Below are positions 6,274 through 6,625 of a stretch of 9,469 nucleotides of DNA, piece by piece (within the stretch, counting starts at the first letter, position 1; each line of letters begins with the position of its first letter). The position numbers were made by a program, and so were the translations under genes. Origin of the DNA: a virus. Taxonomy: Duplodnaviria; Heunggongvirae; Uroviricota; Caudoviricetes. The DNA is taken from IMG/VR virus record IMGVR_UViG_2711768074_000026; one strand, given 5' to 3'. The notes beneath the pieces are model-generated. The model saw only the letters and a program-made list of their open reading frames with translations, ran no database searches and was not told the DNA's origin.

Positions 6274-6520
6274 TTGCCCCTCGCTAAGTTAATGTTTTAT
6301 AAAGAGTTTTTATCACCAATCCTTTTCAGGGGCAAAAATGAGGGGCAAAAATTAGATTTTCAGGGGCAATTATTGGCATTTCAGGGGCAAAAATGAGGGG
6401 CAAAATCACTGTTTCCCAGAATTTCAGGGGCAAAAATAGTAGGTTTCAGGGGCAAAAATGGGATAGTAGAATCTTGGGGATTTTATTCGGGGGCAAAAAT
6501 TCAGAATTTCAGGGGCAATT
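6274..6520 (+). repeat. Iteron array: nine direct copies of (TTTC)AGGGGCAA(AAAT) plus one inverted copy
   Basis: Direct copies start at 6328, 6341, 6362, 6383, 6396, 6426, 6448, 6489, 6511 (spacings 13, 21, 21, 13, 30, 22, 41, 22 bp); inverted core ttgcccct at 6274-6281; followed by AT-rich 6521-6600 with near-palindrome atcaaatattttgat. Confidence 0.85.
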
Positions 6521-6625
6521 CCCATCAAATATTTTGATAGAAAATTCTTGTATATTATTTAATCGAAAAATCACCAAAAAGTGGCGTAAGTTAATGATTT
6601 AAAAAGAATTGTCAAAAGGTCTCCG

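Follow-up and report, generated by a model that had tools for sequence, protein, structure and literature searches.

A phased repeat array that varies in step with the N-terminal domain of a 320-residue protein in ycdX-integrated enterobacterial prophages: a candidate replication origin and initiator

The IMG/VR virus record IMGVR_UViG_2711768074_000026 (Caudoviricetes), a stretch of 9,469 nucleotides to which we refer in its full length as the window, contains an array of short direct repeats within a non-coding spacer, which an initial inspection of the letters without database searches (the sequence-only reading) had singled out. Our analysis establishes this array as a real, functional and previously unannotated feature. 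Arrays are found at the same syntenic position in 11 of 11 related elements from Escherichia coli, Salmonella and Proteus, but they are built from five types of unit, and the type of unit varies in step with the N-terminal ~180 residues of a protein of 320 amino acids (aa) encoded downstream. Because of this covariation the array is most likely the binding site of that domain, and comparison of the related sequences suggests that the two most likely constitute an exchangeable specificity module of enterobacterial prophages integrated in ycdX. The pair behaves like iterons with their initiator, or operators with their regulator, that draw on a new protein family, and we assign it to none of the known systems. 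The reading that we favor, for which we consider the chances to be evenly balanced, is that the array serves as the vegetative replication origin and the 320-aa protein as its initiator.

The core motif AGGGGCAA has nine exact copies in the window, all of them within 6274-6518, where chance would give 0.23; in 200 shuffles that preserved dinucleotides this count was never reached. Eight of these copies lie on the + strand and one on the - strand; a tenth unit, cGGGGGCAAAAAT, starts at 6488, and the 16-mer consensus TTTCAGGGGCAAAAAT is present exactly four times, at 6324, 6379, 6422 and 6444 (Table 1). From start to start the nine direct units are separated by 13, 21, 21, 13, 30, 22, 41 and 22 bp, and their phase coherence peaks at a period of 10.7 bp (R = 0.83, p ~0.013 against random placement), with most of the units facing the same side of the helix. 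Three related elements (L090, L098 and L092) likewise have an inverted copy of their own lineage's motif on the left side of the array. The sequence-only reading had described nine direct copies and one inverted copy in ~250 bp, spaced mostly 13 or 21-22 bp apart at multiples of the helical turn and followed by an AT-rich segment and then sigma-70-like promoters; each part of this description agrees with our measurements, including the right flank of 26% G+C and the promoter-like sites at 6626-6634 (TGCTATAAT, read from the sequence) and 6715-6743. Two open reading frames across the array (6235-6396, 53 aa; 6393-6602, 69 aa), called as genes in some public assemblies, were rejected as non-coding because relatives carry 1-nt and 8-nt indels that break their frames. 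A full-text literature search for the repeat sequence matched no paper.

Relatives of the window were reached through exact-pattern and exact-protein look-ups in IMG/VR and public assemblies, and a search through complete E. coli genomes placed the element. Twenty-two close relatives retain the architecture of the array, with a copy number that varies through deletion of one to three units, and over 23 relatives 8-11% of the columns in units are polymorphic as compared to 25% of those in spacers (Fisher p = 0.01). A search of 1.84 billion representative proteins yielded only three distant homologues of the 320-aa protein; a profile of the neighboring 149-aa protein reached Salmonella and Proteus, and the contigs fetched on this basis added eight elements that share the gene order and mostly also lie in ycdX. 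Conservation among related genomes had been proposed by the sequence-only reading as a check on the array; an array is indeed present in every one of the related elements, with a unit that differs by lineage. The five unit types are AGGGGCAAAAAT, CACGGACAAAAAT, GGAATCTAGGGGATT, CTAGGGATG and TAGTGTAGGT. The unit (TTTC)AGGGGCAAAAAT is shared by the window, the E. coli elements of types A and B, L090 and L098; L095 has TTTCACGGACAAAAAT; L092 has five copies of GGAATCTAGGGGATT at 21-24 bp; the Proteus element L093 has CTAGGGAT(G/A) in 15 direct copies and an inverted one, mostly 11 bp apart; and L094, L096 and L097 have TAGTGTAGGT. Each lineage's unit is restricted to its own spacer. Helical phasing is seen in eight of nine lineages, with R of 0.83-0.95 at periods of 10.6-11.3 bp; it attains p < 0.05 against random placement in only six of them, several of the lineages share a unit type, and the null for L093 comprised only 8 random sets. 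The phasing, the inverted copies and the fact that units are better conserved than spacers point to selection on the array, and the phasing and inverted units imply recognition on duplex DNA; by these sequence criteria, then, the array is evidently under selection and acts as double-stranded DNA.

The protein that reads the units was sought by comparing pairwise protein identities between pairs of elements with the same unit and pairs with different units, for seven protein families. Perfect separation is seen only for the N-terminal part of the 320-aa family (180 residues compared), in which identity is 49% or more between elements with the same unit (mean 76) and 37% or less between elements with different units (mean 8), the latter maximum being due to L095, whose unit differs by only 2 nt. 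The other six families fail: same-unit identities go down to 69% for the small terminase subunit (TerS), 57% for the large terminase subunit (TerL), 35% for the 149-aa protein, 44% for the 59-aa protein, 46% for the 200-aa protein and 51% for Rha, while their different-unit identities go up to 100%, 99%, 93%, 92%, 84% and 73%, respectively. The C-terminal part of the 320-aa protein likewise does not track the unit. Natural swaps illustrate the pattern most directly: L090 and L094 have TerS proteins that are 100% and TerL proteins that are 99% identical, yet different units and N-terminal domains that cannot be aligned, and the same holds for L098 and L092, in which TerS is 99% identical. Simple linkage does not explain this covariation, since the gene for the 59-aa protein lies between the array and the 320-aa gene and has a different history. 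Physical binding of the array by the N-terminal domain of the 320-aa protein is accordingly predicted by the comparison, and we hold it to be quite probable.

The same data led us to reject the 59-aa helix-turn-helix (HTH)-like protein, TerS, Rha, the 149-aa protein and the 200-aa protein as specificity partners, as they reach identities of 73-100% across different units. The sequence-only reading had proposed the 59-aa protein and a 227-aa protein as candidate binders. Neither proposal is supported: the former is 83-92% identical in elements with four different unit types, and the latter lies in the tail/lysis block and has a weak match to a minor-tail family of PHROG. That reading had also stated that no initiator or partition gene is recognisable, which stands as far as homology is concerned, but covariation has now brought out the 320-aa protein as a candidate cognate.

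Table 1. Features of the window around the array (coordinates in the window; a dot marks features without a strand)
Feature	Coordinates	Strand	Remarks
149-aa acidic-tailed protein	5196..5645	-	First gene of leftward operon; left border of spacer
G+C-clamped mini-hairpins with GNA triloops	5738..6236	.	On both strands, left of array
Inverted unit (AGGGGCAA on - strand)	6274..6281	-	47-55 bp left of direct array
TAAGTTAATGTTT	6285..6297	+	One mismatch from reverse complement of integration host factor (IHF) consensus (YAANNNNTTGATW)
Nine direct units	6324..6518	+	Consensus TTTCAGGGGCAAAAAT
Direct-unit cores	6328-6335, 6341-6348, 6362-6369, 6383-6390, 6396-6403, 6426-6433, 6448-6455, 6489-6496 (GGGGGCAA), 6511-6518	+	
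Single "foreign" unit GAATCTTGGGGATTTT	6469..6484	+	Inside array; same as the unit forming the whole L092 array
AT-rich tract	6519..6610	.	~26% G+C; holds palindrome ATCAAAtaTTTTGAT at 6524-6538
Promoter-like TTGACA-17-TATACT	6715..6743	+	11/12 matches; palindrome TTGACAacTGTCAA over -35; kept in most lineages
Terminator-like hairpin and T-run	7031..7052	+	Just 5' of 59-aa gene; ends ~300 nt leader; kept in type B, L090, L092-L098
59-aa HTH-like protein (MARPVKFTRE...)	7087..7266	+	Between array and 320-aa gene; does not track unit
320-aa protein	7381..8343	+	Proposed cognate binder, from covariation; array ~860 bp upstream
113-aa coiled-coil protein	8370..8711	+	Ends -GLRLVA

Several features of the locus argue for an origin with its initiator. 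The layout is like that of known origins, with phased direct repeats, intrinsic A-tracts and an AT-rich flank in nine lineages. In the window, G+C amounts to 26% over the first 120 bp on the right of the array, 45% on the left and 35% over the whole spacer, and the right flank is AT-rich (25-38% G+C) in all nine lineages, even where its sequence is non-homologous. The array stands away from promoter-like sites: no sigma-70-like promoter with at least 9/12 matches lies inside it, and the nearest promoter-like sites are ~90-200 bp away on the right and ~560 bp away on the left. It is also the only candidate origin that we found in the intact prophage of ~35 kb, in which no replication protein, helicase loader, CI-type repressor or partition nucleoside triphosphatase (NTPase) is recognisable, so that no other replication function of the phage is apparent.

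The protein itself adds to this case through its modular organization. It is predicted to consist of a β-rich N-terminal domain (~1-160), which would carry the specificity, a coiled coil (~199-237) and a helical, swappable C-terminal domain ending in -RKAA, and its gene is followed by one for a small coiled-coil protein, which is a possible partner. Homologues in eight of 11 elements end in -KAA, -RAA, -EAA, -YAA or -NVA (8329-8343 in the window), and the products encoded downstream of the 320-aa gene in the window, L090, L092, L094 and L095 all end in LR(L/I)(V/A)A (8697-8711 in the window); to judge from their sequence, both kinds of tail resemble ssrA-type protease tags. The 320-aa gene moreover stands behind two terminator-like hairpins, one from a scan and one read from the sequence, which together with the tag-like tails also favors an origin.

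Further support comes from a cluster of mini-hairpins beside the array. About 10 are observed against 1.3 expected, with triloops that are almost all GNA on one strand or the other, and exact SCGNAGS motifs number six within 384 bp against ~0.3 expected. Compensatory changes are seen in the stems from lineage to lineage, and CCTCCT, which resembles an anti-Shine-Dalgarno sequence, follows some of them. DNA mini-hairpins of this kind are reported at the complementary-strand origin of phage G4, at ssiA of RSF1010 and in N4 promoters (reviewed in PMC13037366). On this pattern the cluster could represent single-strand initiation signals or structured RNAs, and it would appear to belong to the functional unit of the array. 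L090, and no other lineage, has three perfect DnaA boxes (TTATCCACA) at 7692-7859, ~600 bp from its array, in an insertion of ~200 bp between the gene for a 60-aa protein and that for its 305-aa homologue of the 320-aa protein; these boxes too favor an origin.

If the array is indeed an origin, its units would be phased iterons, read on double-stranded DNA by the N-terminal domain. Several 320-aa molecules could then load side by side on one face of an A-tract-bent array and be held together by their coiled coils, the adjacent AT-rich tract would be opened, and the variable C-terminal domain, with or without the small downstream coiled-coil protein, would recruit host replication proteins.

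A number of observations weigh against an origin with its initiator. Searches with the 320-aa protein found no match to any initiator family, whether Rep_3, Phage_rep_O, TrfA or another, nor to any known family or fold; the only usable structural model (predicted local distance difference test score of 60) looks β-rich, not winged-helix, and its fold matches are all generic. The window shows no enrichment of DnaA boxes, with 9 where 10.9 would be expected, and none adjoins the array. The AT-rich flank also carries promoters and therefore need not be an unwinding element; in most lineages G+C is lower still elsewhere in the spacer, and repeats of the 13-mer type were not observed. The array of L095 lacks phasing. 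Arrays also hold single units of other lineages, which the proposed mechanism leaves unexplained: besides the L092-type unit in the window, L094 has an L093-type unit, and units of the L094 type occur in type B, L090 and L098. Nor does it account for L098, whose own array is built of AGGGGCAA but in which an inverted pair of GTGTAGG flanks the leader promoter-like TATAAATAC. Finally, as the phage has no recognisable repressor, the pair could equally be a repressor and its operators.

Among known systems the closest functional analogue, by analogy of organization, appears to be the ori/O module of lambdoid phages (lambda, phi80 and gene 18 of P22). As in our elements, phased repeats lie there beside an AT-rich tract, the specificity resides in the N-terminal domain of a phage protein of ~300 aa and is swapped together with the repeats, which is the property that marks membership of this group, and the C-terminal part is separately exchangeable and encoded upstream of a partner gene. 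Lambda O is an unstable protein and a substrate of ClpXP, which parallels the ssrA-like tails described here. However, the iterons of lambda lie inside the O gene, whereas our array is non-coding and 860 bp upstream, with the leader and another gene in between; there are nine to seventeen asymmetric units of 12-16 bp rather than four of 19 bp with internal symmetry; and neither a match to Phage_rep_O (Pfam) nor a P-like or DnaB-type helicase loader is recognisable. Like our locus, iteron plasmids with Rep_3 or TrfA initiators (pSC101, R6K gamma, RK2 oriV and P1 oriR) have direct repeats at about two-turn spacing next to an AT-rich tract, with possible IHF sites, an additional copy in inverted orientation and the gene of the cognate protein close by, and the core of the RK2 iteron, TGAGGGGC, resembles ATGAGGGGCA in two of the units. 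They differ in that our element is chromosomal and has neither a match to winged-helix Rep proteins (Rep_3, RepA, Pi, TrfA) nor conserved DnaA boxes, and in that its units measure 12-16 bp instead of 17-22 bp, with some pairs only 13 bp apart.

The oriV of IncQ plasmids (RSF1010) likewise combines iterons with an adjacent AT-rich tract and hairpins on opposite strands bearing CCGAAGG-type motifs (PMC13037366), but no homologues of RepA, RepB' or RepC are found in our elements, and the ~10 hairpins, whose priming role would be putative, are equally possible as RNA structures. In the Rep-ori modules of Staphylococcus aureus pathogenicity islands (SaPIs) and other phage-inducible chromosomal islands, island-specific iterons and the specificity domain of the initiator diverge together in the same manner; the 320-aa protein, however, has no NTPase signature, whereas the Rep of SaPIs is a helicase whose domains can be recognised, and in SaPIs ori directly follows the 3' end of rep. 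The repressor-operator system of phage Mu, in which many asymmetric sites lie between divergent promoters, offers a parallel of a different kind. The Mu repressor c binds DNA through its N-terminal domain, has a coiled coil in its middle part and ends in a C-terminus that is sensitive to proteases. Its operators overlap promoters, whereas the sites described here lie away from promoter-like elements, and no similarity in sequence or fold to the 320-aa protein was detected.

This last parallel bears on the one alternative that we regard as a real, if lesser, possibility, namely that the array is a transcriptional control region. The 320-aa protein would in that case be a regulator, either a lysogeny repressor or an activator, which binds all along the array and uses its coiled coil and the inverted unit to loop or silence the divergent promoters, as part of a heteroimmunity-type module. 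The site does lie between divergent operons, no CI-like repressor is recognisable anywhere in the prophage, immunity modules likewise swap binder and sites between near-identical phages, and GTGTAGG units are found around promoter-like sites in L094, L097, L098 and type B. As against this, the units overlap no sigma-70-like promoter, and five to seventeen phased direct repeats would be unusual for operators. Types A and B, moreover, differ in their promoter/leader allele and candidate operators and yet have an identical array and the same N-terminal domain, although the array does differ between other near-identical relatives. Two terminator-like hairpins before the gene and an ssrA-like tail on its product would also be odd for a constitutive repressor. 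A centromere-like site for partition or positioning, with the 320-aa protein as adaptor, is much harder to sustain. Phased direct repeats upstream of an operon do recall parC/ParR and tubC/TubR, most closely in L093 with its 11 bp units in three clusters, and the protein has a coiled coil; but the 35 kb prophage has no ParA, ParM or TubZ-type NTPase, every copy found is chromosomal, and the 72,556 plasmids searched (PLSDB) contain neither the 320-aa protein nor the spacer DNA. For these reasons we disfavor a centromere and think it very unlikely. The sequence-only reading had likened the array to iteron origins, centromeres and operator arrays alike; the general reading as a protein-binding iteron array is supported by conservation, phasing and covariation, but a role as a centromere is disfavored.

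An action at the RNA level seems similarly improbable to us. Transcribed UUUCAGGGGCAAAAAU motifs might form a sponge for an RNA-binding protein or be antisense to the 5' arm of the terminator of the Rha operon, given that a perfect 16-mer makes up half of that terminator hairpin (GCCCCTGAA/TTCAGGGGC) and that structured elements bearing compensatory changes abound elsewhere in the spacer. The copy in the terminator, however, does not co-vary with the array (L090, L092), phasing at 10.6-11.3 bp and inverted units would be meaningless in RNA, no promoter with at least 9/12 matches reads into the array, and Rfam has no match to it. To a packaging site of the cosB or pac type bound by TerS we assign a negligible probability: terminase small subunits bind arrays of short repeats and the terminase genes flank the region, but TerS is 99-100% identical in pairs with different units (L090/L094 and L098/L092), which excludes it as the partner that reads the repeats and with it a packaging site, and a G+C-rich cos-like segment is present in the canonical place just upstream of the TerS gene. 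Nor do we see any appreciable chance that the array is a functionless, neutral tandem duplication. Slippage can expand short repeats, and copy number does vary among close relatives; yet arrays of unrelated units occur at the same position in every lineage, and they are phased, more conserved in units than in spacers and co-vary with one domain. Taken against these alternatives, an origin read by the 320-aa protein is the account that we continue to favor.

The window represents a deletion derivative of the ~35 kb prophage, which is integrated in ycdX of E. coli. At its junction (4121/4122; context 3375-4653) the last 172 codons of a GpJ-like tail-tip gene abut a Rha gene that is cut short at 183 aa, and the block from terminase to tail is absent. 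Strain GN4741 carries an intact copy of the prophage (NZ_CM177112.1, 2799509-2834835). The intact prophage has a large serine recombinase at one end and its structural and lysis genes on one strand; it encodes a lambda-type TerL and, 6 kb away at the other end, a Nu1-like TerS (PHROG E = 9e-17), so that the whole regulatory region lies between two terminase genes with TerS on the right and TerL on the left. The TerS gene (L073:24718-25269; from ~9429 onward at the end of the window) is at the attR end and has the G+C-rich cos-like segment upstream. The array region is present in 47 of 5,426 complete E. coli genomes at 50 places, all of them chromosomal, and is never annotated. Megablast, blastn and tblastn with the region and both flanking proteins found no match in 50,697 phage records, a scan of one genome per species with a 38-nt two-unit pattern gave none, a related-locus search of IMG/VR yielded no distant relatives, and a literature search for ycdX prophages with serine recombinases returned nothing relevant. 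The known hosts of the prophage family are E. coli, Shigella, Salmonella and Proteus.

Two divergent sets of genes are separated by the 1.4 kb non-coding spacer (5676-7086) that contains the array, on the left those for the 149-aa protein, a 110-aa protein and the Rha-family protein (- strand), and on the right those for the 59-aa, 320-aa and 113-aa proteins (+ strand). Within the spacer, elements resembling sites for IHF bracket the array: that at 6285-6297 recurs at 6587-6599 (TAAGTTAATGATT), both being putative binding sites, and the exact consensus TAAGTTATTGATT adjoins the arrays of L090 and L092. The 59-aa protein belongs to a set of small paralogues, together with a 74-aa protein and a 200-aa protein, which share an N-terminal (G)RPxKF...HTH-like motif (present twice in the 200-aa protein; L073:18581-19443) and have no family match. 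A perfect copy of the 16-mer TTTCAGGGGCAAAAAT is found at L073:19501-19524, in a segment deleted from the window, where it forms the 3' arm of the GCCCCTGAA/TTCAGGGGC hairpin. This hairpin is the terminator between the 74-aa gene and the Rha operon, and the copy is confined to intact E. coli relatives. We rejected this solitary copy as a functional distant site, because the Rha terminators of L090 and L092 are unrelated to the units of their own arrays.

To the right of the array the region 6520-7060 exists in two non-homologous promoter/leader alleles among close E. coli relatives, with the array alike in both. Each allele has its own palindromes or short repeats around its promoters, type A the palindromes ATCAAAtaTTTTGAT and TTGACAacTGTCAA, and type B three copies of GTGTAGG and two tandem promoters. 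The leader of ~300-450 nt bears terminator-like hairpins at 6881-6906 and 7031-7052. A motif TTATAAATA(N5-6)GTG, often followed by a GTGAA...TTCAC hairpin, occurs once, at 5687-5703 on the - strand, at the leftward promoter (~5687-5715) and twice in the right leader (6811-6835 and 7012-7030), and is kept across lineages; these sites may be promoters of one family in which a stem-loop stands at the 5' end. A conserved 12 bp hairpin with compensatory changes separates the 59-aa gene from the 320-aa gene (7309-7338), which on the - strand is a terminator and on the + strand buries an AGGAGG followed by an ATG mini-ORF (ORF, open reading frame). Searches of the region of the window revealed nothing meaningful in Rfam and no tRNA.

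These results provide a probable function for a 250 bp feature and for a protein family that had both been unannotated, and they indicate that comparison of mosaic relatives can find a cognate protein where homology searches fail. It is conceivable, if rather unlikely and suggested here as a speculation, that the arrays and N-terminal domains act as "barcodes" in a contest between related prophages, wherein a resident element, even a decayed one such as the window, would use the single units of rival lineages kept in its array to titrate or mis-fire the initiator of an incoming relative; this would amount to origin-based exclusion, with a new family of β-rich coiled-coil initiators bearing protease-tagged tails. 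Should the proposed pairing be correct, the 320-aa family would represent a new fold of DNA-binding initiators, or of regulators, and the pairs would be a source of orthogonal origin/initiator or operator/regulator combinations. With at least five natural specificity variants and their matching sites, these prophages would then offer a system for studying how protein-DNA recognition diverges.

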